64,000 nt of DNA from contig CAWICY010000004.1 of assembly GCA_963834845.1 (NCBI GenBank), positions 2,649,530-2,713,529 on the forward strand. Direction: 5' to 3'. Shown piece after piece: positions 3,556 through 41,193 of the stretch. Made by a program: the position numbers and the translations under genes. The notes under the pieces were generated by a model. That model made no database searches. It was not told the origin of the DNA and saw only the letters and a list, made by a program, of their open reading frames with translations. The stretch is from an uncultured Pseudomonadota bacterium (lineage in GTDB: Bacteria; Pseudomonadota; Gammaproteobacteria; Burkholderiales; SG8-39). Each line of letters opens with the position of its first letter. Position 1 is the stretch's first letter.

Positions 3556-3597
3556 GCTGCTCAGATGATGGCGCAGGCGCCAATTACCCGGAGGACC

Positions 3598-8220: not shown

Positions 8221-8236
8221 GGGGTATAGTTGATAG

Positions 8237-8266
8237 TGTCAACGAGTCGCGCTAAGCTTGTCAACG
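8237..8266. promoter_or_regulatory. Direct repeat TGTCAACG (8237-8244 and 8259-8266, 22-bp spacing) in the 53-bp divergent HMGL / pcaH intergenic region
   Basis: Read directly. The position between two divergent starts suggests an operator. No regulator can be assigned from sequence alone. Confidence 0.3.
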
Positions 8267-8273
8267 GATCCGG

Positions 8274-9017: not shown

Positions 9018-9030
9018 AAGGGGAGCCGCA

Positions 9031-9588: not shown

Positions 9589-9594
9589 GCCGCC

Positions 9595-12220: not shown

Positions 12221-12952
12221 GCGAGGTGCTGCTAAGCGAGGACCGCGGCCGGGTGCGCATCCTCACCATGAACCGGCCCGGGAAGCTGAACGCGCTTAAT
12301 ACCGCGCTCACCGAGGCGCTTCTTGCCGGGTTGGAGCAGGCCGAGCACGACGACGCGGTGTCGGTGGTGATCCTGACCGGCGCCGGGCGCGCCTTCTGCG
12401 CCGGCGCCGACGTCGGCGAATTCAGGGAGCTGACGCCGGACCAGGCGGCGCGCGTCGAGCGCCGCGCCGAGCTCACCATGCGCTCGCACCTCGTCTTTTC
12501 GCGGATGCGCAAGCCCGTGATCGCCGCGCTGCGCGGCGCGGCGATGGGCGGCGGCGCGGGGCTCGCGCTGGCTGCCGACCTGGTGGTCGCCTCGGAGAAC
12601 GCGAAGATCGGCTACCCGGAGATCAAGCACGGCATCCTGCCGGCGATCGTCATCGCCAACCTCACGCGCCAGGTGGGCAGGAAGGCCGCCTTCGAGCTGG
12701 TGAGCACCGGCGAGCCGCTCGATGCGCGGCGCGCCTTCGAGCTCGGCGCGGTCAACCGCGTGGTGCCCGACGACAAGCTGCTCGAGGCGGCGCTCGCGCT
12801 CGCCGAAACGCTCGCCGCCTTCAAGCCCGAAGCGCTGTACGCCATCAAGCGATCTGTTCCACCAGGTTGCCGACCTGCCGCTCGCCGCCGGGCTGGAGGA
12901 GGGCCGCAAGGCGAACATCGCCATGCGGGCGATTTACGCCCGGGGACGCTGA
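12217..12952 (+). pseudogene. Enoyl-CoA hydratase/isomerase (crotonase) interrupted by one +1 frameshift near 12850-12853
   Basis: The crotonase N-terminus (RILTMNRPGKLNALN...LTGAGRAFCAGADV...GAAMGGGAGLALAADL) runs in frame 1 to AIKR. The expected C-terminus (LFHQVADLPLAAGLEEGRKANIAMRA...*) continues in frame 2 (ORF 12722-12952). The apparent extra nucleotide is in cga-t-ctg. Confidence 0.75.
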
Positions 12953-12990
12953 GCCCGGCTGCCCCGAGAACCGGCAATCGCTGCGCCGCC

Positions 12991-13887
12991 ATGGGTGTCT
13001 CGCTCGCGCTGCTGTCGATGCTGTGCTTCGCGTCGAACATCATCATCTCGCGCTACGCGATGGCGCAGATGAAGATCGAGCCCGGCTTTCTCGTGGTGCT
13101 GCTGGTGAACATCCTGTTCGCGGCCCTTGTGTTCGCGATCGAGCTCGCGCTGCGCTCGACGCCGTTCGCGATCCAGTGGGGCGAGGCGGGTCTGTTCGCG
13201 CTCGCCGGCATCGTCGGCACCTACCTGGGCAGGCGTCTGCTGTTCGACACGGTGCGCCTTCTCGGGCCGGCGCGCGCGAGCGTGTTCCATTCTTCGGCCC
13301 CGGTGTTCACGCTGATCGCCGCATGGCTGCTGGTGGGCGAGCGGCTGGGCGGTTACGAGCTCGCCCTGATGGCGCTGGTGATGGCGGGCCTGTGGACCAC
13401 GCAGCCGGCGAGCGGCGGGGCCGCCGATGTCCATCGCCCGAGCGGCGACGCGCTGCGCCGCGGAATGCTGATGGGGATCCTCACGGTCGCCGGCTTCGGC
13501 GTCGGCAACGCGATCCGCGGCCTCGCGATGCGCAGCTGGAGCGAGGCGGTGTTCGGCGCGCTCGCCGGCTCGATGGCGGCGTTCGCTTGCCAGCTCGCCA
13601 CCACGCGCAACCACGCCAAGGTGTTCGGCGAGCTGCGCGCGGCGAGCCGCGCGGGGATCGCGCTCTATGCGGCGAGCGGCATCGCCACGGTGTGCGGCTC
13701 GATCTTCATCGTGTCGGCGATGCGCTACATGGAGATCGCGCTCGCGGCGCTCGTCACGCACACCACGCCGCTGGCGATCTTCCCGGTGAGCGTGATCGTG
13801 TACCGCAACCGCGAGGGCCTGTCGCCGCGCACCGTGCTCGGCGCCGCGATGGTGCTGGCCGGCATCGTGCTGCTGGCCGTGCGTTGA
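12991..13887 (+). CDS. EamA/DMT superfamily permease
   Basis: About 298 aa with ~10 hydrophobic segments. MGVSLALLSMLCFASNIIISRYA..., duplicated EamA-like halves. Confidence 0.75.
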   Translation: MGVSLALLSMLCFASNIIISRYAMAQMKIEPGFLVVLLVNILFAALVFAIELALRSTPFAIQWGEAGLFALAGIVGTYLGRRLLFDTVRLLGPARASVFHSSAPVFTLIAAWLLVGERLGGYELALMALVMAGLWTTQPASGGAADVHRPSGDALRRGMLMGILTVAGFGVGNAIRGLAMRSWSEAVFGALAGSMAAFACQLATTRNHAKVFGELRAASRAGIALYAASGIATVCGSIFIVSAMRYMEIALAALVTHTTPLAIFPVSVIVYRNREGLSPRTVLGAAMVLAGIVLLAVR

Positions 13888-13923
13888 CAGCGCCATGGAG
13901 GTAGTTGACAATGGCAACTATCT

Positions 13924-15108
13924 ATGCGGCCCCTCGAGCACGTCACCGTCGTCGACCTGTCGCGCGTGCTGGCGTGCCCGTTCGCCAGCATGGTGCTCGC
14001 CGAGCTCGGCGCGACGGTGATCAAGGTCGAGCAGCCGGGCACCGGGGACGAGACGCGCGGCTTCGAGCCGCAGCTGGCGCGCGACAGCGCCTACTATTTC
14101 GCCTGTAACCGCGCCAAGCGGTCGATTACCGTCAACCTGCGCTCGGCCGACGGGCAGCAGATCGTGCGCGAGCTGGCGCAGGGCGCCGACGTGCTTGTCG
14201 AGAACTTCCCGGTCGGCACGCTTGGCCGCTACGGCCTGGGCTTCGCTACCCTCTCGGGCCTCAACCCGCGGCTGGTCTACGTCTCGTGCACCGGCTTCGG
14301 CCAGAGCGGACCCTACGCGCACAAGAAGGGCTACGACACCGTGTTCCAGGCGATGGGCGGCATCATGAGCCTGACCGGCGAGAAAGGCGGCGGGCCCGTG
14401 AAGCCGGGCCTGCCGGTGGCCGACCTCACGTCGGGGCTGTGGGTGGCGATCGCGATCCTCGCCGCGCTCGCGGGACGCGAACGCGCCGGCCGCGGCTGCC
14501 AGGTCGACTTCTCCATGCTCGACGGCCAGGTGTCGCTCCTGACGCTGGCCGCGGCGCGCTATTTCGCCCTCGGCGAGATACCGCCGCGCCTCGGCACCGA
14601 GCATCCGGGACGCGTGCCCTCGGCGAGCTTCCGCTGCAAGGACGGGCGCTTCGCCCACATCACCGCCAGCGACCAGCACTGGCAGCCGCTGTGCCAGGCG
14701 CTGGAACTGGCGAAACTCGGATCTGACCCCGATTTCTCCGACAACGCGCAGCGCGTCGCGCGGCGCGAGGAGGTGATGGCGGCGCTGACCGCGGCGGTGG
14801 CGAGCGTGACGCGCGCCGAGCTGATCGCCAGGCTCGACGCCGCCGGGGTGCCGGTCGGGCCGGTGAACGACGTCGCCGAAGTGATCGCCGATCCGCAGGT
14901 GCGCGCGCGCCGCATGGTCGGCAGCTTCGACTATCCCGGCGTGGGCGAATTCCGCGCGCTCGCGCTGCCCTACAAGTTCCTCGGCTGGGACGATCCCGAG
15001 ATCGGCCGGCCGCCGACGCTCGGCGAGCACACCGAGGCAATCCTGAGAGAACGGCTCGGCTACAGCGACGAGCGCATCGCCGAGCTGAGGAGGTCGCGCG
15101 CCATATGA
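13924..15108 (+). CDS. Family III CoA-transferase (CaiB/BaiF type)
   Basis: PLEHVTVVDLSRVLACPFASMVLAELGATVIKVE.PG.GDETR, ...GYDTVFQAMGGIMSLTGE: the classic family III signature. Confidence 0.9.
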   Translation: MRPLEHVTVVDLSRVLACPFASMVLAELGATVIKVEQPGTGDETRGFEPQLARDSAYYFACNRAKRSITVNLRSADGQQIVRELAQGADVLVENFPVGTLGRYGLGFATLSGLNPRLVYVSCTGFGQSGPYAHKKGYDTVFQAMGGIMSLTGEKGGGPVKPGLPVADLTSGLWVAIAILAALAGRERAGRGCQVDFSMLDGQVSLLTLAAARYFALGEIPPRLGTEHPGRVPSASFRCKDGRFAHITASDQHWQPLCQALELAKLGSDPDFSDNAQRVARREEVMAALTAAVASVTRAELIARLDAAGVPVGPVNDVAEVIADPQVRARRMVGSFDYPGVGEFRALALPYKFLGWDDPEIGRPPTLGEHTEAILRERLGYSDERIAELRRSRAI

Positions 15109-15851
15109 GCGTTCTCTACGATCTCAGAAACGGCGTGGTGACGATCACGCTCGATCGCCCAGAGGCGCGCAACGCGCTCGACATGGCGCTGTGCGACGCG
15201 CTGCTCGCGGCGGCACGGCGCGCCGCCACCGACGAATCCGTCAGGCTGGTGCTGGTGCGCGCCGCGGGCCCGGTGTTCTGCGCCGGCGCCGACCTCAAGG
15301 AGCGCCAGGGCATGGACGAGACGCAGGTGCGCGCGCGCCGCATGCGCGCGTTCGAAGCCTACGCCGCGCTGGAAGCGCTGCCGATGCCGGCAATCGCGGT
15401 GATCGAGGGGCCGGCGGTCGGCTCGGGTTGCGAGATTGCCGCCGCCTGCGACTTCATCGTCGCCACGCCGCGCGCAGCGTTCCGCACGCCGGAGGCCTTG
15501 TGGGGCACGGTCGGGGCGACGCAGCGCCTGCCGCGCGTGCTCGGCAAGCGGCTCGCCAAGGACCTGATGTTCACCGGGCGCACGCTCACCGCGGAGGAAG
15601 CCGAGCGCCACGGGCTGGTAGCGCGCGTGGTGCCCGAGGACGAGCTCGAAACGGTGCTGGCGCAGATCGCCGAGACCATCGGCAAGGCCCCCGCGCGCTC
15701 GCTGGCGCTCGCCAAGCGCTCGATCGACCGCGGCATCGAGCTCGACGCGCGCGGCGCGCTCGACACCGAGATCGCGGCGATCGAGGAGCTGCTCGCCGCC
15801 AAGGGCTGGAAGGACGGCTTCGCCGCGTTCGGCAAGCGCGAGCCCGGATGA
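15105..15851 (+). CDS. Enoyl-CoA hydratase/isomerase family protein
   Basis: ITLDRPEARNALD...AAGPVFCAGADLKER...IAVIEGPAVGSGCEIAAACDF. ATGA overlap at both ends. Confidence 0.9.
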   Translation: MSVLYDLRNGVVTITLDRPEARNALDMALCDALLAAARRAATDESVRLVLVRAAGPVFCAGADLKERQGMDETQVRARRMRAFEAYAALEALPMPAIAVIEGPAVGSGCEIAAACDFIVATPRAAFRTPEALWGTVGATQRLPRVLGKRLAKDLMFTGRTLTAEEAERHGLVARVVPEDELETVLAQIAETIGKAPARSLALAKRSIDRGIELDARGALDTEIAAIEELLAAKGWKDGFAAFGKREPG

Positions 15852-17359
15852 GCTGGCAGGCGGCGACGCTCGGCGAGGTGCTCGAAGCGCAGGCACGCGC
15901 GCGCCCGCGGGCCGAGGCGCTGGTGACCGCGACGGCGCGCCTCACGTACACCGAATTGCTCGCAGCCGCGCGGCGCGCCGCCGGCGGCATGCAGGCCATG
16001 GGCCTCGCCAGGGGCGAGCACGTCGCGATCCTCATGGGCAACGACGAGAAGTGGTTGGCCCTCTTCTACGGCGCGGCGCTCGCCGGCCTCGTCACGGTGC
16101 CGGTCAACACGCGCTTCAAGGCGCCCGAGCTCGACTACTGCCTGAAGAAGGCCGACTGCAAGGCGCTCTTCTATGTCGAGCGTTTCCTCAACAACGACTA
16201 CGGCGCGATGGTGCGCGAGCTGCGCCCGCCGCGCGCGCTCGACGTCTCGCAGTCGATGCCCGAAGGCGAGTTCCGCGGCGCGCAGGTGTCGCCAGGCGAG
16301 CTGCTGCTCATCCAGTTCACCTCGGGCACCACCGCCTATCCGAAGGGCGTGATGCTGACGCACGACAACATGCTGAGGAATGCCTTCGCCGCGGGAACGC
16401 GCATCGGCGTGGGCGCCGATGACCGCTACTTCAACTGCCGGCCGCTGTTCCACGTCGGCGGCTCGACGCTCTCGGCGCTCATGTCGCTCGTGTTCGGTGC
16501 CTGCCTGGTGACGCTGCCCAGCTTCGAGGCTGGCGCGGCGCTCGCCATGATGGAGCGCGAGCGCTGCACGCTCACCTCGGGCAACGACACCATCTTCCAG
16601 ATGCTGATGGGCCACGAGGACTTCGCCAGGCGCAGGCTGTGCCTGCGCGGCGGGTGGGCGGCGGCCGGCCCGCAGACCATGAGGAGGATCATCGACGTGC
16701 TCGGCGCAAAGCACATCTGCGCCGCCTACGGCCTGTCGGAGGCGTCGCCCAACGTGGTGATGAGCGACTGGCGCGAGCCCGAGGCGCTGCGCGTCGAGGG
16801 CCTGGCGCGGCCGCACGAGGGGCTCGAATTGCGCATCTCCGCCGAAGGCGAGATCCAGGTGCGCGGCTGGAGCGTGATGCGCGGCTACTACAACGACCCC
16901 GAGCAAACCGCAAAAGCGTTCACCGCCGACGGCTGGCTGCGGACCGGCGACCTCGGCGCGCTCGACGCCGAAGGGCGCTTGCGCATGCTCGGGCGCCTGA
17001 AGGACGTGTTCCGCGTCGGCGGCGAGAACGTCGCGCCGGCGGAGGTCGAGGAAATGCTGCTCGCGCATCCCGCGGTCGCAAGCGCGCAGGTGATCGGCGT
17101 GCCAGATGCGCGCCTGGGCGAGGTGCCCTGCGCCTACGTCACGCTGAAGGCCGGCGCGCGTGCGTCCGAGGCGGAGCTGGTCGCCTGGGCGAAGGCGCGC
17201 GCGGCCAATTTCCGCGTGCCGAGATATCTCAGGATCGTGGCGGACTTCGAGGCCATCGGCATGACCGCCAGCGGCAAGGTGCAGAAGGCGAAGCTGCGCG
17301 AGCATGCGCTGCGCGAGCTGGGTTTGAAAATCGAGCCTGGCCCCTTTTCCTTTTCATGA
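15848..17359 (+). CDS. AMP-dependent synthetase/ligase (acyl-CoA synthetase)
   Basis: IQFTSGTTAYPKGVMLTH (AMP-binding motif I), ...YGLSEASP..., TGDLG.LD.EGRL....R.KD....GGENV.P.EVE, ...SGKVQK. Confidence 0.9.
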   Translation: MSWQAATLGEVLEAQARARPRAEALVTATARLTYTELLAAARRAAGGMQAMGLARGEHVAILMGNDEKWLALFYGAALAGLVTVPVNTRFKAPELDYCLKKADCKALFYVERFLNNDYGAMVRELRPPRALDVSQSMPEGEFRGAQVSPGELLLIQFTSGTTAYPKGVMLTHDNMLRNAFAAGTRIGVGADDRYFNCRPLFHVGGSTLSALMSLVFGACLVTLPSFEAGAALAMMERERCTLTSGNDTIFQMLMGHEDFARRRLCLRGGWAAAGPQTMRRIIDVLGAKHICAAYGLSEASPNVVMSDWREPEALRVEGLARPHEGLELRISAEGEIQVRGWSVMRGYYNDPEQTAKAFTADGWLRTGDLGALDAEGRLRMLGRLKDVFRVGGENVAPAEVEEMLLAHPAVASAQVIGVPDARLGEVPCAYVTLKAGARASEAELVAWAKARAANFRVPRYLRIVADFEAIGMTASGKVQKAKLREHALRELGLKIEPGPFSFS

Positions 17360-19293: not shown

Positions 19294-21387
19294 CTAGAAC
19301 GGCAGCCTGCCCTGCACGCCAAGCATGTAGCTGCGCCCGGGGGCAGGCTCGTAGAAGCGCTGGTTCGACTCGTTGACGATCACCGAGCCGACGTAGTCCT
19401 TGTCCGCGAGGTTGTCGATGCGCAGGAACTCCGACAGCTGCCAGTCGCGCGCCTGCTGCCGGAAGCCGAGCGCCAGGTTGGCGATGGTGTAGGCGTCGGC
19501 GAACTGGGTGTTGGCGTCGTCGGCCGCGATGCGCGAGCGGTACTGCACCTCGAACAGCACGTTGAAGCCGGTCGGGGCGTGCCTCCAGCGCAGCTCGCCG
19601 TAAACGCTGTTGCGCGGCACGCTGGGGAGAACGTTGCCCGCGGCGACGGCGCCGCTGCCGCCGGTGAAGCTGTCCTCGAACGTGGCGTCGAGCAGGGTCC
19701 AGGCGAGCGCTGCCTCGATGTCGTAGGGCAGCGTTGCGCTCGCGCCGAGCTCGGCGCCGCTGCGATGCGTGCGACCGGCATTCTTGTACGTCGTGCGCCC
19801 GCCGCTGCTGGTGTCGACCACGATCTCGTCGCGCGTCTGGATGTCGTACAGCGCGAAATTGACCCGCAGGTTGGAAGCGAAGAGCGCCTTGATGCCAGTC
19901 TCCCAGTGGCGGCTGGTGGCCGGCTCGAGCGCGAAATTAAGGCCGGTGCCGGTGGGGCTGTATGCCATCTCGGCGAAGGTCGGGGTCTCGAAGCCCTGGC
20001 CGTAGCTTACGTAGGCGCTGGCCGTCGGCGTGATGCGGTACAACAGTCCCGCCGTCGGCGTGGTGGCGCTGAAATCGCGGTTGCCGCTGTCGTCGAGATT
20101 GCTCGGCAGCACGATAAAGTGGTCGACCGAGTCGAACGACACCCGGCTGGCGCGCACGCCGGCGATCGCAACCCACTTCTCCGCCGGGCGCCACTCCGCC
20201 TGCGCGTAAGCGCCGGTGCTGGTGACGGTATCGTCCTCGTCGCGCTTCAGGTTGGTGAGATCGCCGAAGTTGTTGATGTAGCCGCGGCGCCGCTCGTCTT
20301 GCAGCTCGTACTCGGCGCCGACGTTCAGCGTGAGCGGCCGTCCGGCGAGCGATCCCTCGTGCGCGAAGCGCAGGCCGGCGCCGCCGAAGTTGCGACCGAG
20401 GTCCACCACGCCGCCCGAGCTGGTCGGCGCGTTCTGCGCGCCGAGCGGGATCGCCAGGTACTGGCGAATGGTGCGGTCGCCGGCGTACAGCGTCGCGCTC
20501 ACCGTGTTGTCCCCGAAGTGATGCTCTAGCGTGCCGCCGAGCTGGTTCTGCAGGACGCTCTTGCGCGTGTCGAACGCAATGGCATTGGTGCCGGCCTGGC
20601 GCCGGTCGGAGTCGAGCTGCGCGCGCGTCAGCCCGAGCGGGTCCTGCACCTCGGGGCTGTTGAAGTAGTTGGCCACCACCGTCACCGTGGTATCGCCACC
20701 CAGGCCGAAGCGCAGCTTGGTGTTCAAATTGTCGCGCCGCGCGCTGCTGTGGTCGCGGTAGCCGTCGGTCTCGAACCGCGCTCCGCTCGCGAGCCAGTCC
20801 ATGTTGCCGCTGCGCTCGCCCGCCTTGACGCCAGCGCGCCAGGTGCCGAAGGAGCCCGCCTCGGCGCCGGCATCGAATCCCGGCGCGCTCGAGCCGCTCT
20901 GCGTGAACACGTTGATCACGCCGCCCGCGGCGTTGCCGTACATCACCGAGAACGGGCCGCGCAGCACCTCGATTCTCTCGGCCGAGCCGAGGTCGATGTG
21001 CGACACCTGCCCCTGGCCGTCGGGCATGCTCGCCGGGATGCCGTCCACCAGCAGCCGCAGGCCGCGGATGCCGAAGGTCGAGCGCGCGCCGAAGCCGCGC
21101 GAGGAGATCTGCAGGTCCTGCGCGTAATTCTGGCGGTTCTGCGCCACGATACCCGGCACGCTGCCGAGCGACTCTGATAGGTTCACCTGGGGCCGCGCCG
21201 AATGGATGTCCTCGCCGTAGACGCGGTCGATGGAGGCCGGCACTTCGAGGATGGGGCGCTGGCTGCGCGTCGCGGTGACCGTCAGCGCTTCGTCGGCCGC
21301 GGGCTGCTGGGCGAGCGCCGCCGCCGGCACGCAGAGCTGCGCACAAATCGCGAGACCGCGAAAGGGGAAAGCGAGGAATTGCTGCAC
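19294..21387 (-). CDS. TonB-dependent outer-membrane receptor
   Basis: GTG start with GGGAGGG RBS and signal FLAFPFRGLAICAQLCVPAAALA. Plug motifs (LTVTATR..., IEVLRGPFSVMYGNAAGGVINVFT). C-terminal ...YMLGVQGRLPF. An in-frame ATG at 21591 with an AGGAGG RBS also exists (see findings). Confidence 0.88.
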   Translation of the reverse strand: MQQFLAFPFRGLAICAQLCVPAAALAQQPAADEALTVTATRSQRPILEVPASIDRVYGEDIHSARPQVNLSESLGSVPGIVAQNRQNYAQDLQISSRGFGARSTFGIRGLRLLVDGIPASMPDGQGQVSHIDLGSAERIEVLRGPFSVMYGNAAGGVINVFTQSGSSAPGFDAGAEAGSFGTWRAGVKAGERSGNMDWLASGARFETDGYRDHSSARRDNLNTKLRFGLGGDTTVTVVANYFNSPEVQDPLGLTRAQLDSDRRQAGTNAIAFDTRKSVLQNQLGGTLEHHFGDNTVSATLYAGDRTIRQYLAIPLGAQNAPTSSGGVVDLGRNFGGAGLRFAHEGSLAGRPLTLNVGAEYELQDERRRGYINNFGDLTNLKRDEDDTVTSTGAYAQAEWRPAEKWVAIAGVRASRVSFDSVDHFIVLPSNLDDSGNRDFSATTPTAGLLYRITPTASAYVSYGQGFETPTFAEMAYSPTGTGLNFALEPATSRHWETGIKALFASNLRVNFALYDIQTRDEIVVDTSSGGRTTYKNAGRTHRSGAELGASATLPYDIEAALAWTLLDATFEDSFTGGSGAVAAGNVLPSVPRNSVYGELRWRHAPTGFNVLFEVQYRSRIAADDANTQFADAYTIANLALGFRQQARDWQLSEFLRIDNLADKDYVGSVIVNESNQRFYEPAPGRSYMLGVQGRLPF

Positions 21388-21654
21388 GAGATATTCCCTC
21401 CCTGATCGCTTACGTTCGCGCCGCCGGTCAGGGCCGCAGCGCAGTCCTCTGCATCGCAATTCTGCCATACGGCGCGCCTCGCTATCCCGCGCCGCGCTTG
21501 CCCGGCGTGGAATTGGGCTGGTTGCCGACGGCGGCCACTCGGCGTTAAAGCCCGTAAACGCTACGGCGCTTCGGGCGGCAACCGACCGCATGCAAAACCT
21601 CCTGTCTGACTCAATGCGGTGAGGAATCGCGGGCGCTGGCGCGACGGGCCAGGA

Positions 21655-22647
21655 TCAGCGCACCACTACACCCCAGGGCTTCTCCCCGACCGATACGTCC
21701 CGCAGCCGCTCGTTCTTTTCGGTGTCGATCACCGACACCGAGTTCGAACGGCCATTCGCGACGTAGAGCTTCTTCGCGTCGGGTGTCAGCGCCATGTTCC
21801 AGGGGCGCTTCCCGACCGGGATCGTGGCAATGATCGCATTCGAAGCGGTGTCGATCACCGATACCGTAGCATCGCCGCCGTTCGATACGTACACCCATTT
21901 GCCGCTGGGGTGCACGGCGATGCCATTGCAGCGCACCCCCGCCTTGATGCGCGTGATGACCTTGAAATTCACCGCGTCGAGCACGTAGACATGGTTGGCG
22001 TTCTCGGCGGCAACGTAGGCGCGGCTGCCGTCGGGCAGGAAGCCGATGCCGCGCGGTCGCGCGCCGACAGGCACCTGGGCGATCTCCTTGCGTTGGCCGA
22101 CGTCGATGATGTCGACCGCTTCGCCTTCCTCGGCGCTGACGAACACGAGCCGCCCATTCGGGCTGAATACCGCGTGCTCGGGGTTCTTGCCGCGCACCTT
22201 GACGACGAAGGCCTTGCGGTTGTCGCGGGTATCGACGAATGCGACGTCGTTGCTTTCCTCGATCGCCGCAGCGACCCAGCGCCCATCCGGAGACATCCCC
22301 ACGCCTTCGGGCGATTCGCCCAGCGGCACGGACGCGGCTTCCCGACGGGTGCTCAAGTCGATCAGCACGAGGCGATTGTTGGGTTGGTCGCTCACGTACA
22401 GCCAGCGGGCGTCGAGGCTTACTGCGGTGCCGCGGGGCTTCTTGCCGGCGGCCAGCTCTGCGACCACCGCGTCGGTCCCGGTATCGATGATGGATACGGT
22501 GCCGGAGCCCTCGTTGGGCACATAGGCATATGGCGCCGCGAGGAGCGTATGCGGCAGCACCCACACGAGCGCGCACAGGAACCGCGCGAGCGAGATGGCG
22601 CGACGCAAGACGCGGCTAATCTCTTGCACCGGCGGCGCGCAGCGCAT
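21655..22647 (-). CDS. YVTN-family beta-propeller repeat protein (resembles the PQQ-dependent-catabolism-associated propeller family)
   Basis: Repeated ~40-aa units (YVPNEGSGTVSIIDT, LYVSDQPNNRLVLIDL, VYVSNGGDATVSVIDT, LYVANGRSNSVSVIDT). Signal-like FLCALVWVLPHTLLAA. Start ambiguous (ATG 22668/22647 or TTG 22608). Confidence 0.82.
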   Translation of the reverse strand: MRCAPPVQEISRVLRRAISLARFLCALVWVLPHTLLAAPYAYVPNEGSGTVSIIDTGTDAVVAELAAGKKPRGTAVSLDARWLYVSDQPNNRLVLIDLSTRREAASVPLGESPEGVGMSPDGRWVAAAIEESNDVAFVDTRDNRKAFVVKVRGKNPEHAVFSPNGRLVFVSAEEGEAVDIIDVGQRKEIAQVPVGARPRGIGFLPDGSRAYVAAENANHVYVLDAVNFKVITRIKAGVRCNGIAVHPSGKWVYVSNGGDATVSVIDTASNAIIATIPVGKRPWNMALTPDAKKLYVANGRSNSVSVIDTEKNERLRDVSVGEKPWGVVVR

Positions 22648-23275
22648 CGATGGTCTCGCGGTTGCCATTGTCGATCGCCATGGACAGAGCGGTCTTGCCG
22701 CGGTTGTCGCGCTTCGCCGCGTCAGCTCCCCGCAGCAGCAGCAGCTTCACAGTGGCGGCTTGGCCGTATCCGGCGGCCCACATCAGCGCGGTCAGTTCGT
22801 TGCTGTATGCAGTGTTGACATCGACGCCGGCGTCCAGCAAAGCGGCGAGGCAGTCTGCGTGGCCGGTGCCCGCGGCGTAGATGGCGGCGGTCTTCTTGAC
22901 CCGATCGGCCAGCATCGGGTCGGCCTTGCGCGCGAGCAGCATGCGCACGATCTCCGCGTGCCCGTTGTAGGCCGCGCTCATGAGCGGCGAAACGCCAGCG
23001 GCATTCTGCAAGTTAACATCCGCGCCGCGCTCGAGCATGAGCTTCACGATCTCGGCCTTGCCGTTCTTGGCGGCCGTGTTCAGCGGGGTGTCGCCGATGC
23101 GATTGCGCGAGTCGGGATTCGCGCCCTGCTCGAGCAGCGCAGTTGCGCTGGCCACGCTGCCGGAACGCACAGCCACCAGCAGTTCCGCATTGACGTTTTG
23201 GAGTCCGGCCTGGCCCCAAGAATTGCAGGCCACCAACAGCAGCCCGACGATCCCCAGCGGTCTGATTACTTGCAT
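22616..23275 (-). CDS. Ankyrin-repeat lipoprotein (exported)
   Basis: MQVIRPLGIVGLLLVAC has a lipobox (LVAC). At least five ANK repeats follow (G.TPLN.AAKNGKAEIVKLMLERGADVN, G.SPLMSAAYNGHAEIVRMLL, LTALMWAAGYGQAATVKLLLLRGAD...). Confidence 0.85.
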   Translation of the reverse strand: MQVIRPLGIVGLLLVACNSWGQAGLQNVNAELLVAVRSGSVASATALLEQGANPDSRNRIGDTPLNTAAKNGKAEIVKLMLERGADVNLQNAAGVSPLMSAAYNGHAEIVRMLLARKADPMLADRVKKTAAIYAAGTGHADCLAALLDAGVDVNTAYSNELTALMWAAGYGQAATVKLLLLRGADAAKRDNRGKTALSMAIDNGNRETIDALRAAGARD

Positions 23276-23563
23276 TTGCCTTACGCTCCGAGCACTATTC
23301 GAAGCCGAGAGGAGCGTGAACCCGCTCGATCGGCTCATTTTCGAGGTACGCTGCGACGCACGGCCCGCTTTCGCTCAAGGTCGGCATGAGCGTCGCCGGC
23401 GCGGTTCAATGCATTTTCCAATGCTTCTCATATAGAGTAACAAAAAAACAAGAGCCGTTAACGATTACTTGGTCGCTTGGCCGCGGCTGGGTCTTTGGTC
23501 AAGCGTGAGGTGTTGGCAGGATCGCAAAACAAGCGAAACAGAAACTACGCGAGGGAGACATCC

Positions 23564-25285
23564 ATGTTCAGGGAACGCAAGACGCTTCTCATTCGGGCCG
23601 GCGCGGCCGCTGCCTTGATGGCGGCAGCGGGCGTGGTCGGCGCGCAGAAGATTCAGGCTCAAAAAGCGGGGCCCGGCACCAGCGCGATCAAGAGCGTCAA
23701 TGTCAGCCAGGCGATGCTCAATGGTTCCGACAAGCAGGACAAGAACTGGCTCCAGACCAACGGTGGCTACGCCCAGACGCGCTACTACACCGGGTCGCAG
23801 ATCAATACCGGCAACGTGAAGAAGCTGAAACCGGCATTCGTTTTCCAGACCGAGGTGGTGGAATCGATGGAGACGGCGCCGATCGTCGTCGACGGCGTCA
23901 TGTACCTGACCACCTCGTTCGATCACGTGTACGCCGCCGACGCGGTGACGGGCAAGGAGCTCTGGCACTACAAGCACAAGATGGGGCCGATCACCACATT
24001 CTGCTGCGGCCCGAACAACCGCGGCGTGGCGATCTCCGGTGGAGCGCTTTACCTCGGGACGCTCGATGCGAAGCTGGTGTCGCTCGACGCCAAGACCGGC
24101 AAGGTCCTGTGGGAAACGCAGATCGCCGATCCGGAGAAGGGCTATAGCGAGACGATGGCTCCGACGGTCGTCGACGGCAAGGTGCTGATCGGCACCAACG
24201 GCGGCGAGTACGGCATCCGCGGATTCGTGAAGGCCTATGACGCGGCCGACGGCAAGCTGCTCTGGACCTTCCACACCATCCCCGAAAAGGGGCACGAGGG
24301 CGCGTGGGCGGTCAACGATGCGACGGGCCGCAACATGCACCGCGATATCGCGGCGGAAAAGGCCGCGTTCGAGAAGGACAGCTCGTTCTATCAGACCCTC
24401 GGTGGCGGCGTGTGGATGAACCCTTCGGTCGACCTCAAGACCCGCACCATCTTCTTCGTCGTCGGCAACCCGTCGCCCGACCTGTATGGCGCGATTCGTC
24501 CTGGGGATAACCTGTACACCGACTCCATCGTGGCCGTCGATCTGGACAAGGGGACCTACAAGTGGCACTCCCAGTACGTCCCGCACGACGTGTGGGATCT
24601 CGATGCCGTCAGCGCCACGATGCTGATCGACGTCAAGGACAAGTCGGGCAAGATGGTTCCGGCCGTGATTCATGGCGGCAAGACCGGCCACGTGTACATC
24701 CACAACCGCGAAAGCGGAAAGCTGATCCGGTTCTCGCAGGCGATGATCCCGCAGGAGAATATGTGGGTGCTGCCGACTCCGGAGGGTGCGCGCATGCTGC
24801 CCGGCGCCAATGGCGGCGTGGAATGGTCGCCGATGGCGTTCAGCCCGAAGACCAGGCTCGTCTATGCGCTGAACCTGCACCAGCCGATGACTTACCACGT
24901 CGAGGCCTCCCCCTACCCGGGCGGGAAGCTCTGGCTCGGCGGCGCGTTCAAGACCATACCGACCGAGAAGCAGTGGGGCCGCGTCGCGGCGGTGAGCGTC
25001 GACTCGGGCAAGGTGGTCTGGAAGCATGACACCGAGCAGCCGCTTATCGGCGGCGGATTGGCGACGGCGGGCGGATTGTTCTTCTTCGGCGAGGGCAACG
25101 GCAATTTCAACGCCCTTGACGCGAAGACCGGCAAGAAGCTCTGGAGCTTCAACTGCGGCGCCGGCGCCAACGCGATGCCCGTGTCCTACATGGTCGGGGG
25201 CAAGCAGTACATCGCCATGGGCTGCGGTGGCAATACCCAGCTCAACTTCAAGCGCGGCAACAGCGTCTTCGTTTTCGCGCTCTAA
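23564..25285 (+). CDS. PQQ-dependent alcohol dehydrogenase (methanol/ethanol family quinoprotein), D-x-D lanthanide-type signature
   Basis: GAGGGAGA RBS and a signal peptide. Propeller W-motifs. Vicinal disulfide FCCGPNNRG. Active-site region [11 protein letters not shown] (WDLD at 24593-24604). No C-terminal haem domain. Confidence 0.92.
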
Positions 25286-25305
25286 CCAAAGCGCAGCAGC
25301 ATGGC

Positions 25306-25336
25306 GAGGCCGCCTTCGGGCGGCCTCGTTCGTTTT
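25306..25336 (+). terminator. Stem-loop GAGGCCGCC-TTCG-GGCGGCCTC followed by GTTCGTTTTA (intrinsic terminator or attenuator after the PQQ-ADH gene)
   Basis: A perfect 9-bp GC stem with a TTCG tetraloop at 25306-25327, then a T-rich tail. Lies 21 nt after the ADH stop. Confidence 0.6.
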
Positions 25337-25939
25337 ATGGAAGGAGGAATTCATTTGCGGCTTCGCACTACATGGTTCTTGGTGGGAATGTCGTTCGCGC
25401 TCGTGAGCGGGCGTGCGCAGTGCCAGGATATCGATGCCGGGGCGCGCAAGGCGGAGGTATGCATCCCCTGCCATGGCGTCAACGGCAACTCGACCAACCA
25501 CCAGTTTCCGATACTTGCCGGACAGACCGCGCGCTACATCTATCTGCAGCTCAAGGATTTCAAGGAGGGGCGCCGCAGGGACCCGTCGATGGATCCGATG
25601 GCGGCCAAGCTCTCGCGCGAGGACATGTTCGACCTGGCCGCGTTCTTTTCCGCGCAGAAGCGACTACCGACCCCATTCAATTCCGACCCCGCCAAAGCAG
25701 CCAAGGGCAAGGCCAAGGCGGATGAAACGCTTTGCACCATGTGTCACCTCGGCGGCTTCATGGGGCAAAACGAGATTCCGCGGGTTGCGGGGCAGCACTA
25801 CGAGTACATCGTCAAGCAGCTCGGGAATTTCAAGGCCCGTCGACGCACGAACGACGCAGGCAACATGACGAGCGTCGCGAACACTCTGTCCGACGACGAC
25901 ATCGAGAATCTTGCGAACTATTTGGCAGGATTGCAGTAG
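25337..25939 (+). CDS. Dihaem cytochrome c4-like protein (probable electron acceptor of the PQQ dehydrogenase)
   Basis: CIPCHG...FPILAGQ.ARYIYLQLKDF and CTMCH...IPRVAGQHYEYIVKQLGNF. Best start may be TTG 25355 (AAGGAGG RBS, giving signal RLRTTWFLVGMSFALVSGRAQC). The ORF-track start 25301 would include the terminator hairpin. Confidence 0.85.
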   Translation: MEGGIHLRLRTTWFLVGMSFALVSGRAQCQDIDAGARKAEVCIPCHGVNGNSTNHQFPILAGQTARYIYLQLKDFKEGRRRDPSMDPMAAKLSREDMFDLAAFFSAQKRLPTPFNSDPAKAAKGKAKADETLCTMCHLGGFMGQNEIPRVAGQHYEYIVKQLGNFKARRRTNDAGNMTSVANTLSDDDIENLANYLAGLQ

Positions 25940-28220
25940 CAGCGTCGCGCGGCGGCCCAGCGCGCCGGCGCGCGCGTTCGTCGGCGCTCTTGCGCTGGGA
26001 CTGATCGCCATGCTGGCGCCAATGACTGCGGACGCGCAGGATCAGCAGGCATCGCCCCGGGAGCTGCCGGAGCTGGTCGTCGTCGGAAGCAGCCCGGCGG
26101 GTGGCACCGGGATCCCCGCCGGACTGTACCCCGGAAACGTGCAGACCATTTCAGGCAATGACATCCGGCCCGGCACCGCGAGCCTGGCCGAGATCCTTGA
26201 TCGGTCCTTGGGTAGCGTGAGCACCAGCGACACCCAGGGAAATCCGTTCCAGGTGGACCTGAATTACCGCGGCTACAGCGCCTCGCCGGTGCTCGGCACC
26301 CCGCAGGGGCTTTCGGTCTATGTCGACGGCATGCGCGTCAACGAGCCCTTCGGAGACGTGGTGTCGTGGGATCTCATCCCGCAGATAGCGATTGCCAACG
26401 TCACGGCGATCCCGGGCACGAATCCTGTGTACGGATTGAATACACTTGGCGGTGCGATTTCGGTCAACACCAAGAGCGGCTTTGCATTTCCCGGTGCGAG
26501 CGTCGGCCTGGGCGGAGGCTCCTTCGGACGCAAATCCCTGGATGCGCAATACGGCGGACACGGCGAGCATACCGACTATTACCTCGCTGCGAGCCTCTAT
26601 GACGAGAACGGCTGGGCGTTGTTCAATCCGAGCCGCGTGCGACAGTTCTTTGCCAAGACCGGGTTTCAGGACAGCGATACCGACTTCGATCTGTCGATCC
26701 AGTATGCGGATAACAGCCTGGCCGGCAATCAACTCGTACCCCAATCCGCGCTGGCCGATGCGGCGCAAGGCTATACCCATCCCGACGTCACTACCACGAA
26801 GAATTTCGTGCTCAATCTGAGCGGCCGGCGAGACCTCAGCGAGACCGACGGCGTCGAAGGAAACGCCTATTACCGACGCATCTCGCGGGACTTGTTGAAC
26901 TCCAACATCGATCATCCCGTGGTGCCGGGGTCGCCCGACCAGGCGGCGAGCTGCGCGGCCCTCTACGGGGAGGCGTGCGCGCAGAACATCCTTAGCCACG
27001 AGACGCAGAATGCGTACGGTCTGAATCTGCTGCTGACGAATCAGGCAAAGTTCCTCGGGCACCAGCAGTATTTTTCAGCAGGCATCAACGCCGAGTACGG
27101 CACGAGCACCCTGTCGCAGTGGTCGCAGGACGCGGTCTTCGACGCGACCCGGGCGACGATCGGCGTCACGGATTTCAGCCCGCAGTCCGCCGTCGATTCG
27201 CGGACCCGGCGCTACGGCGCGTACGTGACCGACACGTTGTCGCTCGGCAAACGTTCGAGCCTCACCGTATCGGGAAGGTTCGACCGCGCATCGGTGGGGC
27301 TCTCGGGGACATCCGTTGACCAAGCGGGCTATCCGGTGAGCGTCGATGGCAGCCACTCCTACCAGCGATTCAATCCGGCGATCGGCGGCACTTATGCGCC
27401 GTCCCCGGTGACGACCCTGTTCGCCAATTACGCCGAAGGATTCCGCACGCCTTCGGCGATCGAACTGGCATGCGCAGATCCGCTGCGTCCGTGCGCGGGC
27501 GTGCCCAACGCCTTCTCGGCGGACCCCGAGCTGAAAGCCGTGGTGGCAAAGAGCTTCGAGCTCGGGGCGCGTGGCAAGCTGCGTGGCGACGCTGCCTGGC
27601 GCATCGCAGGCTTCTACAGCATGCTGTACGACGACATATTGTTCAATCAGTCGACGGTCAGCACCGGGTTCTTCTCCAATGTCGGGAAGACCCTTCGCAA
27701 AGGCGTCGAGTCCAGCCTGAGCGGAAAGCGATCGCAATGGGACTATGCCCTGAACGCGACATGGATCAGCGCGACATATCAGAGCCCTTTCGAGGTCGCC
27801 AATCCCGCGAACAGCGGGTCCGCTTGCCCGGGTGCCGGCTGCGTCCCCGTGCAACCGGGCGACCGGATCCCGGGCATCCCAAGGCTGATCGGCAAGCTCC
27901 TTCTGGGTTATCGGATTGCGCCGCAAACCCGCGTAGAGGCCCAGATCCTGGCCCAGGACTCTCAATATGCGCGGGGCGACGAAAACAATCTCGCGACCTA
28001 CGGCAAGATCCCGGGGTTCGCGACGGTCAGGCTCGGTGCCACGCAGCAGCTTGGCAGGGCGGTCGAGCTCTACGCGACCGTGACCAACCTGTTCAATCGG
28101 CGCTACGCCAGCTTCGGGGCGCTCGCCCAGAACAACCTCGGCGCGGGAACTACGGAGAACTTCTGGGCGGTCGGCCAGCCGCGCGCCTACCTCCTCGGAC
28201 TGAGAGCCATTTTCGAGTGA
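25911..28220 (+). CDS. TonB-dependent outer-membrane receptor
   Basis: Signal ...ALALGLIAMLAPMTADA. Plug region (LPELVVVG..., FQVDLNYRGYSASPVLGTPQGLSVYVDGMRVNEPFGD.V.WDLIP). C-terminal ...YLLGLRAIFE. Overlaps the cytochrome gene by 29 nt if ATG 25911 is used. Confidence 0.88.
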   Translation: MRTIWQDCSSSVARRPSAPARAFVGALALGLIAMLAPMTADAQDQQASPRELPELVVVGSSPAGGTGIPAGLYPGNVQTISGNDIRPGTASLAEILDRSLGSVSTSDTQGNPFQVDLNYRGYSASPVLGTPQGLSVYVDGMRVNEPFGDVVSWDLIPQIAIANVTAIPGTNPVYGLNTLGGAISVNTKSGFAFPGASVGLGGGSFGRKSLDAQYGGHGEHTDYYLAASLYDENGWALFNPSRVRQFFAKTGFQDSDTDFDLSIQYADNSLAGNQLVPQSALADAAQGYTHPDVTTTKNFVLNLSGRRDLSETDGVEGNAYYRRISRDLLNSNIDHPVVPGSPDQAASCAALYGEACAQNILSHETQNAYGLNLLLTNQAKFLGHQQYFSAGINAEYGTSTLSQWSQDAVFDATRATIGVTDFSPQSAVDSRTRRYGAYVTDTLSLGKRSSLTVSGRFDRASVGLSGTSVDQAGYPVSVDGSHSYQRFNPAIGGTYAPSPVTTLFANYAEGFRTPSAIELACADPLRPCAGVPNAFSADPELKAVVAKSFELGARGKLRGDAAWRIAGFYSMLYDDILFNQSTVSTGFFSNVGKTLRKGVESSLSGKRSQWDYALNATWISATYQSPFEVANPANSGSACPGAGCVPVQPGDRIPGIPRLIGKLLLGYRIAPQTRVEAQILAQDSQYARGDENNLATYGKIPGFATVRLGATQQLGRAVELYATVTNLFNRRYASFGALAQNNLGAGTTENFWAVGQPRAYLLGLRAIFE

Positions 28221-28265: not shown

Positions 28266-28622
28266 CTAAGGCAATCCGGGCATCCTTGAGCGCGCGCTTG
28301 GCCACATCCGCTGCAGAACCGCGTCGCGATCGACGAGTGCGTGCTTCAGCGCGGCATGCAGCCACTTCGCGGCACGTGCCTCCCACCGCGGCATGGTGCC
28401 AGGAAACGGAGGCGCCGGATGTAGGGCGCGCCACCAGAGTCTGATGAGTATGATGACTCCTGCGGTGACGCTGATCGACTTGTGCAAGTTGATGACGATA
28501 CTGCGCTCGGGCACGCCGCTTGGCACGCCACCGAGGTACCAGCCGAATGCAATCTGGAACAACACCAGGCCAGCGACGATCCAATGCAGGGCGATCGCCG
28601 TGCGGGTGTATCGATTTTCCAT
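28266..28622 (-). CDS. Cytochrome b561 family protein, apparently C-terminally truncated (possible gene remnant)
   Basis: MENRYTRTAIALHWIVAGLVLFQIAFGW...INLHKSISVTAGVIILIRLWWR....P.....P.WEARAAKWLHAAL matches the first ~2.5 helices of CybB/YceJ-type b561. The sequence then becomes non-hydrophobic and stops at 118 aa; family members are typically ~175-190 aa. Confidence 0.6.
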   Translation of the reverse strand: MENRYTRTAIALHWIVAGLVLFQIAFGWYLGGVPSGVPERSIVINLHKSISVTAGVIILIRLWWRALHPAPPFPGTMPRWEARAAKWLHAALKHALVDRDAVLQRMWPSARSRMPGLP

Positions 28623-28650: not shown

Positions 28651-28971
28651 TTATTTCGGCGGCGTCACGGTCACCTTGATGCTCGAATACCACTCCGAGA
28701 CATTGTCGATGTCGGCATCGGTGAGCGGCTTCGCGATGATGCTCATCTGGTCATTCCGGCGGCTGCCGGAGCGAAAGGCCCTGAGCTGCGCCACGAGGTA
28801 TTCCTTCTGCTGGCCACTGAGGTTGGCGGCGCCGGGCAGGACCGCGACGCCGTCCGCGCCGTGGCAGTTCTGGCACAGGGTCTGCACCATCGGCGGCGCC
28901 TCGCCCCCAGCTCGTGCCTGGACCGGCGACAGGAAGGCGGCGAGTACGAACGCCGTGCAAATGATACGCAT
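28651..28971 (-). CDS. Monohaem class I cytochrome c
   Basis: Signal MRIICTAFVLAAFLSPVQA. CQNCHG....LPGAANLSGQQKEYLVAQLRAFRSG.R.ND.MS (c4-half/c553-like). Confidence 0.85.
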   Translation of the reverse strand: MRIICTAFVLAAFLSPVQARAGGEAPPMVQTLCQNCHGADGVAVLPGAANLSGQQKEYLVAQLRAFRSGSRRNDQMSIIAKPLTDADIDNVSEWYSSIKVTVTPPK

Positions 28972-28980
28972 TTGTCTTCG

Positions 28981-29017
28981 GGGAGAAAAAGATGGGCCGG
29001 GCGCCGGGCCCGGCCCA
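28981..29017 (-). terminator. Rho-independent terminator after the sorbosone-dehydrogenase-like gene
   Basis: On the minus strand: UGGGCCGGGC-ccggc-GCCCGGCCCA (10-bp stem, 28993-29017) followed by UCUUUUUCUCCCC. Confidence 0.6.
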
Positions 29018-29032
29018 GTCTAGTCTGCCCCG

Positions 29033-30325
29033 CTACTTGCCTTGGTACGAGATGCGATAGATCGCGCCGGCCTTGTCGTCGGCTACCAGGATCGAGCCGT
29101 CGACGTACTGCCTCACGTCGACCGGCCGGCCGAGGTAGACGCCTTCCTCGTTCATCCAGCCTTCGGCGAACGGCTCGGTCTTCATCGCATTGCCCTTGTC
29201 ATCCAGGTAGGTGACCATCACCCTTGCGCCCCTGGGCTTGACCGCGTTCCACGAGCCGTGCTGCGCGTCGAAGATCGCGTTGTGGTACTTGGCCGGGAAC
29301 ATCTTGCCCGTGTAGACCATCATTCCCAGGTCCGCGGCGTGCGCGATCATTTCCACCTGGGGCTTGACGTATATCGCGGCGAGTTCCTTGGGAATCTGCT
29401 TGTCCTTGTACTCGTCGGTCCTCGTGCTGCCGCCGCCGTAGTACGGGAAGCCGTACCAGCCGCCCAGATGGAGCTTGCCGTTCGGGGCGGGCACCTTGTT
29501 CAGCTCGCCCGGAGGAATTTCGTCTCCCATGCCGTCGACCTGGTTGTCGGTGAACCACAGGCTCTTGTCCTTGGAATTGAAATCGAGCCCGGACGAATTG
29601 CGCATCCCGGTCAGGACCACTTCGCGTCCCGTGCCGTCACGGTTGAAGCGCACGATGCCGCCGATGCCCCACTTGCGGTACAGATCGACCTTTTCCGGCG
29701 GGGTCACGTTGAACGGCTGGCCGAGGGTGATGTAGATCTTGTTATCGGGGCCGATTACGCAGGCGCGCGCCGTGTGGTTGTACGATTCCTCTTCCGGCGG
29801 AATCAGCTCGCCCTGCTTGACGATCGCGACCGCAACCGTGTCGGGGCTTTCCATGAAGTATTCCGCCGCCGGGAACATCATCACGCGGTTGCGCTCGGCG
29901 ATGAACAGGAACCCGTCGGGCGAATAGCAGGCGCCGGCGGGAATGTCGAACTTGACGCTCGGGCTGAACTCCTCGACCGTGTCGGCGACGTTGTCCATGT
30001 CGCGATCGGTCACCGACCAGACGGTGGACTTGCGCGTGCCGACCCAGACGGTCGCCTTGTTGCGGCTCACCGCCATCTGCCGGGCATCGGGCACGATGGC
30101 AAACAGCTCGATCTTGAAGCCGTCGGGCAGCTTGATGCGCTGTAGCACCTTCTTAAGGTTATCCGCGTACTGGCCACCTTGCGGCACGCTCTTCCCGGGA
30201 CGGGAATCGGTGCGCTTGAACGCGCCCAGCTTGTCCAGATTTGCCTCGTCGTCCTTCGCGAAACCGGTGCTCGCGGAGAACGCAAATGCCAAGCCTACGG
30301 CAAGATATAAAGCCTTCCTCTTCAT
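29033..30325 (-). CDS. PQQ-dependent sugar/sorbosone dehydrogenase family beta-propeller (exported)
   Basis: MKRKALYLAVGLAFAFSASTGFA signal. ...LPDGFKIELFA....ARQMAV..., NSSGLDFN.KDKSLWFTDNQVDGMGDEIPPGELN, ...GSILVADDKAGAIYRISY: the sorbosone/glucose dehydrogenase-like pattern. Confidence 0.8.
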   Translation of the reverse strand: MKRKALYLAVGLAFAFSASTGFAKDDEANLDKLGAFKRTDSRPGKSVPQGGQYADNLKKVLQRIKLPDGFKIELFAIVPDARQMAVSRNKATVWVGTRKSTVWSVTDRDMDNVADTVEEFSPSVKFDIPAGACYSPDGFLFIAERNRVMMFPAAEYFMESPDTVAVAIVKQGELIPPEEESYNHTARACVIGPDNKIYITLGQPFNVTPPEKVDLYRKWGIGGIVRFNRDGTGREVVLTGMRNSSGLDFNSKDKSLWFTDNQVDGMGDEIPPGELNKVPAPNGKLHLGGWYGFPYYGGGSTRTDEYKDKQIPKELAAIYVKPQVEMIAHAADLGMMVYTGKMFPAKYHNAIFDAQHGSWNAVKPRGARVMVTYLDDKGNAMKTEPFAEGWMNEEGVYLGRPVDVRQYVDGSILVADDKAGAIYRISYQGK

Positions 30326-30379
30326 GATTCCTCTCCCTTTCCTTATGTGATCCGCTGTCGCCCCTGGGGCAACTCCTGC

Positions 30380-30399
30380 CTGGATCGGTGTCGATCCAG
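30380..30399. promoter_or_regulatory. Perfect inverted repeat CTGGATCG-gtgt-CGATCCAG upstream of the sorbosone-dehydrogenase-like gene
   Basis: Read directly, 55 nt upstream of start 30325 in the divergent intergenic region shared with the acyl-CoA dehydrogenase gene. Could be an operator or a 5'-UTR hairpin. Confidence 0.3.
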
Positions 30400-30574
30400 C
30401 GCCGTTCGTTCGATTGGGGCGAGCCATGCTCCTCCCCTTGTTGCGTGCCCGTCAAGCGACGGATCGAACGTTGCCGGCCCACTGTCGTCCCACCCGCGTC
30501 CAACTCGCTTCCCACTGCAACCGTTTGCCGCAGCGCGTTAGACTGAGCGCGGTTTATCCCGGTATCCGACTACG

Positions 30575-40248: not shown

Positions 40249-40260
40249 GGACTCGCGATC

Positions 40261-41154: not shown

Positions 41155-41193
41155 GGTGTTTTTTCCGGACGTTGCGGGTGCAATAATAGCCGC

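Follow-up and report, generated by a model that had tools for sequence, protein, structure and literature searches.

The stretch of DNA analysed here (the window: 64,000 nucleotides of contig CAWICY010000004.1, from an uncultured member of the Burkholderiales) carries a gene for a periplasmic alcohol dehydrogenase of the pyrroloquinoline quinone (PQQ) type, with the Asp-x-Asp (D-x-D) active-site signature of lanthanide enzymes. The gene is followed by those for a dihaem cytochrome c and a LutH-like TonB-dependent receptor, and a divergent unit upstream encodes an orthologue of the PQQ importer PqqU. We consider it probable that the locus forms a module for periplasmic alcohol oxidation, with a lanthanide-type quinoprotein at its centre and importers for both cofactors, where metal use and transport are predicted from homology and gene linkage.

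The dehydrogenase lies within an open reading frame (ORF) at 23477-25285 (+). Its likely start is the ATG at 23564 (M30 of the ORF), and from there the N-terminus, over 27 residues, is signal-peptide-like. An earlier reading of the bare sequence (the original prediction) had reported a D-x-D signature, a vicinal Cys pair within FCCGPNNRG and no haem domain, and all three were borne out. The codons TGG GAT CTC GAT at 24593-24604 translate to W-D-L-D, within an 11-residue active-site stretch encoded by 24581-24613; the Cys pair is C147-C148; and the protein contains no CxxCH motif and no Pfam domains other than PQQ propellers (PF01011 at 288 bits), so that a haem domain is absent. In NCBIfam the protein matches TIGR03075, the methanol/ethanol quinoprotein family, with 476 bits, slightly under the curated cut-off of 480.

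In XoxF-, ExaF- and PedH-type enzymes the additional Asp coordinates the lanthanide. The original prediction had placed the second Asp of W-D-L-D, D347, at this position, and comparison with enzymes of known structure agrees. By phmmer the best match in the PDB is the lanthanide enzyme PedH of Pseudomonas putida (6ZCV/6ZCW, E 5e-91), the matches to PedH, ExaA, XoxF and MxaF ranging from E 1e-91 to 1e-57. The phmmer alignment pairs the active site with 'phdgwdfdgvn' of PedH and 'pndawdfsgnn' of the calcium enzyme ExaA. When 74 sequences were aligned, the D347 column held Asp in S. meliloti XoxF, PedH and a PedH orthologue, Ser in ExaA, and Ala in a type-6a Methylobacterium enzyme. C147-C148, E215, N302 and D345 were likewise aligned to the corresponding PedH residues, and the remaining metal ligands are matched by Glu in GGEYG and Asn in GNPSP. 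By alignment, D347 is homologous to the lanthanide-coordinating Asp of PedH and XoxF, and a non-homologous origin of this Asp was ruled out.

The motif HD[VI]WDLDA occurs in all 120 closest database homologues (78-97% identity), D347 being invariant among them, and W-D-L-D is thus not a chance match; CC, GGEYG and GNPSP are retained in at least 119 of the same 120. Six positions (C147, C148, E215, N302, D345 and D347) are invariant across an alignment of 26 sequences of the clade. An AlphaFold2 model of the enzyme, with a mean predicted local distance difference test score (pLDDT) of 70, has PedH as its top Foldseek match in the PDB (template modelling score, TM, 0.74), and the PedH, ExaA, XoxF and MxaF structures give TM 0.70-0.75; the active-site loops of the model, with pLDDT <50, are too low in confidence for reading geometry. 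The claim that the enzyme is probably lanthanide-dependent is supported, as a prediction, by the homologous Asp, the invariant ligands and the linkage to the receptor described below.

More than 8000 homologues of the dehydrogenase were scored, of which the top 120 are those cited above. Among contigs representing one genome per species, the 80 best loci carry dehydrogenases of 74-91% identity; their carriers are Burkholderiales (Polaromonas, Ramlibacter, Limnohabitans, Rhodoferax, Curvibacter), Gemmatimonadales, Rokubacteria, Anaeromyxobacter and others. A tblastn search against plasmids and chromids gave identities of 64-75% in Ideonella, Paraburkholderia, Caballeronia and Alloyangia and then an abrupt drop to at most 36%. 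Identity to PedH and ExaA is 39-40%, and to S. meliloti XoxF 34%. The alignment and phylogenetic placement proposed with the original prediction were carried out: the Asp column proved homologous, and a rough neighbour-joining tree puts the clade apart from the XoxF/ExaA/PedH group, beside uncharacterised cluster representatives. With these identities and a separate branch in the rough tree, the enzyme falls outside both the XoxF1-5 and the type 2b clades of PQQ alcohol dehydrogenases, and it is, as judged from identity and branching, a member of a distinct and tightly conserved clade. Literature searches found no characterised member of it. The nearest 50%-identity cluster representative (P0241, 51% identical) reads HDIWGRDAAS, with Gly at the position of the catalytic Asp, suggesting a non-catalytic or differently wired relative; another representative (P0246, 44% identical) reads WDLS.

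The receptor encoded downstream was also part of the original prediction, as a protein overlapping the cytochrome gene and analogous to LutH, and this analogy can now be strengthened to homology. TTG 25911, the sole receptor start codon that retains the signal peptide, precedes the cytochrome stop at 25939, and because of this 29-nt overlap the dehydrogenase, cytochrome and receptor genes look like one transcription unit. Two LutH-type references were compared, the receptor of Methylosinus trichosporium OB3b (CQW49_RS02145) and that encoded on pMNOD02 of Methylobacterium nodulans. The OB3b LutH-like and LanA sequences were taken from Table S2 of PMC12482762, according to which the OB3b LutH-like receptor is needed for cerium-dependent XoxF expression (citing Shiina 2023). 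With the OB3b protein the window receptor shares 30.6% identity over 729 aa (E 4e-94), and with the M. nodulans protein 30.5% (E 4e-97). The two references are 43% identical to each other, and the M. nodulans receptor adjoins a lanmodulin orthologue that shares 68% identity with LanM of M. extorquens. A hidden Markov model of the window receptor's family gave 460 bits to the OB3b protein, at most 81 bits to PqqU and 56 bits to LanA. A Cys-x6-Cys motif, invariant in the window receptor's family, is common to the window and OB3b receptors (ELACADPLRPC against ENGCSDRLHPC). The downstream receptor is, on these comparisons, a full-length homologue of LutH-type receptors, and assignment to the LanA type was ruled out (46-56 bits).

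Structure prediction points in the same direction. The top Foldseek matches of the receptor model (pLDDT 75) are the PqqU structures 9C4O and 6V81. In a joint alignment with PqqU the receptor family lacks the aromatic residue at Y99 (Leu), has Gly at K274 and is non-basic at R365; what stands in the R304 column depends on the alignment. Lanthanide receptors have been described as having a PqqU-like fold without the PQQ-binding residues (bioRxiv 10.64898/2026.07.10.737718), and the modelled fold and PQQ-site pattern of the window receptor match this description. NCBIfam assigned no specific family to the receptor, and the only match in a sequence search of the PDB was a weak one to PhuR (30 bits). 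Taken by itself, that match would suggest a receptor unrelated to the LutH family, a possibility ruled out by the homology to the OB3b and M. nodulans proteins and by the fold, which is matched by PqqU first. A role as a second PQQ importer was also rejected: the PQQ-binding residues are absent, and the receptor co-occurs with a true PqqU and persists beside pqqABCDE.

The genomic surroundings of the receptor family were examined from two sides. Among the 80 genome loci of the dehydrogenase clade, receptor homologues lie within 10 kb of the dehydrogenase in about 20, and directly 3' of the cytochrome gene in 11. An unbiased sample was then made up of 80 metagenome loci retrieved with the receptor alone, regardless of dehydrogenases. 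The neighbours in these loci comprise GerE regulators (35), HisKA_3 kinases (31), YVTN propellers (19), PQQ dehydrogenases (15), cytochrome b561 (13) and true PqqU (9). The motif region could be recovered in 11 of the 15 loci with a PQQ dehydrogenase, and all 11 contain at least one D-x-D dehydrogenase. In one individual case a relative of the receptor neighbours a PedH orthologue (802 bits against 6ZCW), accompanied by a cytochrome, a binding protein, b561, a YVTN protein and a second receptor; in another it neighbours a XoxF-like enzyme, accompanied by pqqBCDE and a XoxJ/XoxG fusion. Sphingobium pMI1 carries a relative together with a PedH-like enzyme, PedF, a PQQ-associated propeller and quinoprotein relay genes, and in cultured B. 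multivorans FDAARGOS_246 a relative is divergent from a D-x-D dehydrogenase near pqqABCDE. In Alpha- and Betaproteobacteria, relatives of the receptor thus adjoin D-x-D enzymes from at least three dehydrogenase clades. Since the receptor persists where pqqABCDE adjoins, it is not there for PQQ supply.

Two further arrangements are worth recording. Six metagenome loci (L132, L138, L147, L149, L154 and L162) have a recurrent block of a LutH-like receptor, GerE, HisKA_3, b561, YVTN and PqqU genes, and in L132, L138 and L147 a PedH-like D-x-D dehydrogenase is also found within the retrieved DNA. The M. nodulans locus (Methylobacterium nodulans pMNOD02, 8146-16036; L174) holds the LutH-type receptor, a response regulator, the lanmodulin orthologue, a YncE/YVTN propeller, and SRPBCC and vWA proteins, and is a plasmid-borne lanthanide-utilisation cluster.

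The second cofactor is addressed by the divergent unit, where a PqqU orthologue is encoded three genes upstream of the dehydrogenase. It is 43% identical to E. coli PqqU (PDB 6V81) over the full length (E 3e-162). The criteria for PqqU are Y/F/W99, R304 and R365 (PMC12124388); the window protein has Phe at Y99 together with R304 and R365, also retains K274, R536, Q84 and Q121, and by its residues qualifies as PqqU. This signature is intact in 22 of 22 co-located homologues from other loci, and the intact signature ruled out that the upstream protein is itself a LutH-like receptor. Genes for pqqB, pqqC and pqqE were not found within the 64 kb window; the presence of PqqU and the lack of PQQ biosynthesis genes in the window suggest PQQ scavenging. 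Next to pqqU lies the gene of a YVTN propeller, of a kind found repeatedly alongside PqqU, cytochrome b561 and the LutH-like receptor. PedA2, of the lanthanide-uptake operon of P. putida, is a YVTN propeller as well (PMC6839425).

What is kept together across the dehydrogenase clade is a core of three genes: the divergent ankyrin gene, the dehydrogenase and the dihaem cytochrome c. Of 80 genome loci, 78 have a cytochrome homologue directly 3' of the dehydrogenase, and the cytochrome is presumed to be the electron acceptor of the enzyme; its likely start in the window is TTG 25355, with GGAGG just ahead. The hairpin that precedes it may be an intra-operon attenuator or a stabiliser of the dehydrogenase mRNA. 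In 77 of 82 loci, from several phyla, an ankyrin homologue adjoins the dehydrogenase, and in Caballeronia its gene is placed after the cytochrome gene. In the window the ankyrin protein has a signal peptide or lipobox (LLVAC) from M22, at about nt 23275, and because the recovered N-termini of its homologues are mostly signal-peptide-like the protein is probably periplasmic. To our knowledge no ankyrin partner of a quinoprotein dehydrogenase has been described. On the far side of the receptor, the cytochrome b561 gene has lost about 66 internal residues in frame compared with the 198-aa homologue usual beside LutH-like receptors: by tblastn, residues 23-109 and 176-197 of a b561 homologue from another locus (L083) are joined in frame. 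The window gene is probably a decayed copy.

Taken together, the module would operate as follows. The dehydrogenase would be exported by way of its Sec signal peptide and fold as an eight-bladed propeller, where PQQ and a metal ion would be held by E215, N302, D345 (the catalytic base) and the extra carboxylate of D347; an extra Asp of this kind is what enables XoxF, ExaF and PedH to bind a lanthanide in its trivalent form. Oxidation of an alcohol or aldehyde would take place at PQQ, and the electrons would pass to the co-transcribed dihaem cytochrome c and on to the respiratory chain. The LutH-like receptor, third gene of the unit, would take up the lanthanide, as free ion or chelate, through the outer membrane, and the divergent upstream unit would supply PqqU for scavenging PQQ, the PedA2-like YVTN propeller and the periplasmic ankyrin protein. 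For the last two, a part in cofactor handling or enzyme maturation is a guess.

Several observations weigh against a lanthanide module of this kind. The receptor is only about 30% identical to the LutH-type references, and TonB receptors switch substrate at such a distance. Some members of its family, at 47-59% identity, sit in loci without any PQQ gene, and the family is therefore not exclusively tied to quinoproteins. The domain scans of the flanking genes revealed neither a lutAEF/pedA1BC-type ABC transporter nor lanmodulin (no ABC domain, no EF-hand), no query aimed at lanmodulin or LutA/E/F having been run; the only ABC system in the window is of the HlyD/ABC-2 type, at 48-53 kb. A small periplasmic partner described beside lanthanide receptors (bioRxiv 10.64898/2026.07.10.737718) is not evident at the locus, where the neighbours of the receptor are the b561 remnant and a monohaem cytochrome c. 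As regards the enzyme, its clade shares only 34-40% identity with XoxF, PedH and ExaA and forms a separate branch of the rough tree, lanthanide dependence is for the clade as a whole a prediction, and the active-site loops of the model have low confidence. Finally, a characterised membrane glucose dehydrogenase also has D-x-D (PMC11996626), which makes the signature strong but not absolute.

The receptor might instead import a cargo other than lanthanide (some other metal, chelated iron or an organic nutrient), its proximity to the quinoprotein being regulatory or historical. The low identity to the LutH-type references and the loci without PQQ genes would fit, relatives of the receptor are annotated as iron receptors in databases, and the commonest neighbour in the unbiased sample is the HisKA_3/GerE two-component system (31-35 of 80), not a dehydrogenase. 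On the other hand, the full-length homology to two LutH-type receptors far exceeds that to PhuR, PqqU and LanA, the family is found repeatedly next to D-x-D enzymes of several clades in two proteobacterial classes and co-occurs with PqqU and the YVTN propeller, and PQQ is excluded as cargo since the PQQ-binding residues are absent. We regard another cargo as unlikely, albeit a possibility to be taken seriously, and a lanthanide as the better candidate.

The lanthanide module can also be taken further. The clade, 75-90% identical across Burkholderiales, Gemmatimonadota, Rokubacteria and Myxococcota, might be a distinct lanthanide system with its own substrate and with ankyrin-assisted maturation or docking, and the block of PqqU, YVTN, b561 and LutH-like genes might be a portable island for scavenging PQQ and lanthanide in bacteria making neither. 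In this extended form the proposal is doubtful, and it is put forward tentatively.

That the dehydrogenase is calcium-dependent or metal-promiscuous despite its D-x-D, the extra Asp being ancestral or structurally tolerated, we judge improbable. D-x-D is widely used to predict lanthanide dependence across many quinoprotein clades (PMC11996626; bioRxiv 10.64898/2026.07.10.737718), and the Asp accompanies a lanthanide in every family with a structurally determined metal (PMC11996626). D347 is moreover invariant in the clade, and the gene is predicted to be co-transcribed with that of the LutH-like receptor. These arguments have to be set against the frequency of D-x-D, which is very common among the nearest 50%-identity cluster representatives of any clade, against the membrane glucose dehydrogenase, which has D-x-D and uses other divalent metals (PMC11996626), and against the distance of the present clade from all enzymes with a determined metal. 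A decaying module, non-functional in the source genome, is very improbable: the b561 gene with its internal deletion of about 66 codons would be in line with decay, but the dehydrogenase, cytochrome, both receptors, propeller and ankyrin protein are intact full-length ORFs with high third-position G+C and have retained all catalytic and signature residues.

D-x-D and LutH-like receptors already serve as standard lanthanome markers, and the locus confirms and extends their use without being a surprise. If the proposed module is correct, a very widespread and highly conserved clade (from soil and freshwater Burkholderiales, Gemmatimonadota and others) joins the lanthanide enzymes, and in one compact locus an enzyme is combined with an importer for each of its two scarce cofactors. 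It would then offer a convenient system for studying lanthanide and PQQ acquisition in non-methylotrophs, and a way into the roles of the conserved ankyrin and YVTN partners.

Table 1. Positions of the features at the dehydrogenase locus, in coordinates of the window.
Feature	Position	Strand	Remarks
PqqU orthologue, TonB-dependent PQQ importer	19294..21591	-	NF041535, 674 bits (equivalog cut-off 1200)
YVTN beta-propeller protein, PedA2 kind	21655..22668	-	TIGR03866 (PQQ-catabolism-associated propeller), 233 bits, cut-off 287
Ankyrin-repeat protein	22616..23338	-	Divergent from dehydrogenase; only ankyrin-repeat matches in library scan
Periplasmic PQQ alcohol dehydrogenase	23564..25285	+	573 aa; signal peptide, eight-bladed propeller, haem domain absent
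Vicinal Cys pair C147-C148, within FCCGPNNRG	24002..24007	+	Conserved in homologue alignments
W344-D345-L346-D347 codons	24593..24604	+	Catalytic Asp, then extra Asp two residues on
G+C-rich hairpin (12 pairs), then T-run	25303..25340	+	Between dehydrogenase stop and cytochrome start; pattern scan only
Dihaem c-type cytochrome (CIPCH, CTMCH)	25355..25939	+	Two CxxCH motifs; ORF opens at 25301
LutH-like TonB-dependent receptor, candidate lanthanide importer	25911..28220	+	Homology, fold, linkage
Cytochrome b561 remnant	28266..28622	-	118 aa; partial match to PF01292

Outside the module, the region 28651-30427 (-) encodes a 464-aa protein with a weak match to glucose/sorbosone dehydrogenases (six-bladed propeller), followed by a terminator-like hairpin at 28993-29017 and a monohaem cytochrome c. 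The 464-aa protein has no significant sequence match in the PDB and could be a six-bladed PQQ enzyme of the kind discussed in bioRxiv 10.64898/2026.07.10.737718. Unrelated gene sets occupy the left end (465-4266, -; an NrfD-type membrane protein, multihaem and dihaem cytochromes), the region at 14-17 kb (CoA-transferase, enoyl-CoA hydratase and acyl-CoA ligase genes) and that at about 39-42 kb (38815-42381; an amidase and a nitrile hydratase alpha subunit). At 49077-51519 (+) several overlapping ORFs together make up the ATPase region of the HlyD/ABC/ABC-2 transporter, a split that may be due to frameshifts.

Among known systems the dehydrogenase most resembles PedH/ExaF (type 2b; 6ZCV, 6ZCW), its best PDB match by both sequence (E 5e-91) and fold (TM 0.74), with which it shares a periplasmic eight-bladed PQQ propeller, the vicinal Cys, the Glu/Asn/Asp ligands and the extra Asp at the homologous position. 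It differs in belonging to a separate clade at about 39% identity, in scoring under the TIGR03075 cut-off, in having Lys for the Arg of 'ADRNG', and in its partners, which are a dihaem cytochrome instead of c550/PedF and a conserved, probably periplasmic ankyrin protein; PedS2/PedR2 and PedA1BC genes were not seen near the window dehydrogenase. XoxF1-5 are of the same superfamily and have D-x-D, and XoxF systems likewise need PQQ, a cytochrome of the c type and lanthanide uptake by a TonB-dependent receptor; however, the identity to S. meliloti XoxF is about 34%, the PDB scores are below those of PedH, and a XoxJ-like binding protein does not adjoin the window gene.

The receptor is like the LutH-like receptors in its full-length identity of 30-31%, the Cys-x6-C motif, the modelled PqqU-like fold without the PQQ residues and the position beside a lanthanide-type dehydrogenase. 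It is unlike them in that its identity is low, that it appears to share a transcription unit with the dehydrogenase and cytochrome, and that no lut ABC transporter or lanmodulin was seen nearby, again with no query aimed at these. The YVTN propeller is of the same repeat family as PedA2/LutB-type propellers, matches TIGR03866 and is linked to lanthanide-type dehydrogenases, whereas its score is under the cut-off (233 versus 287 bits) and ABC transporter genes do not adjoin it. The upstream importer, in turn, keeps every signature residue of E. coli PqqU (YncD) at 43% identity over the full length. It differs in scoring 674 bits against a cut-off of 1200 and in the company of its gene, which is a cluster encoding a quinoprotein dehydrogenase, a LutH-like receptor and a YVTN propeller.

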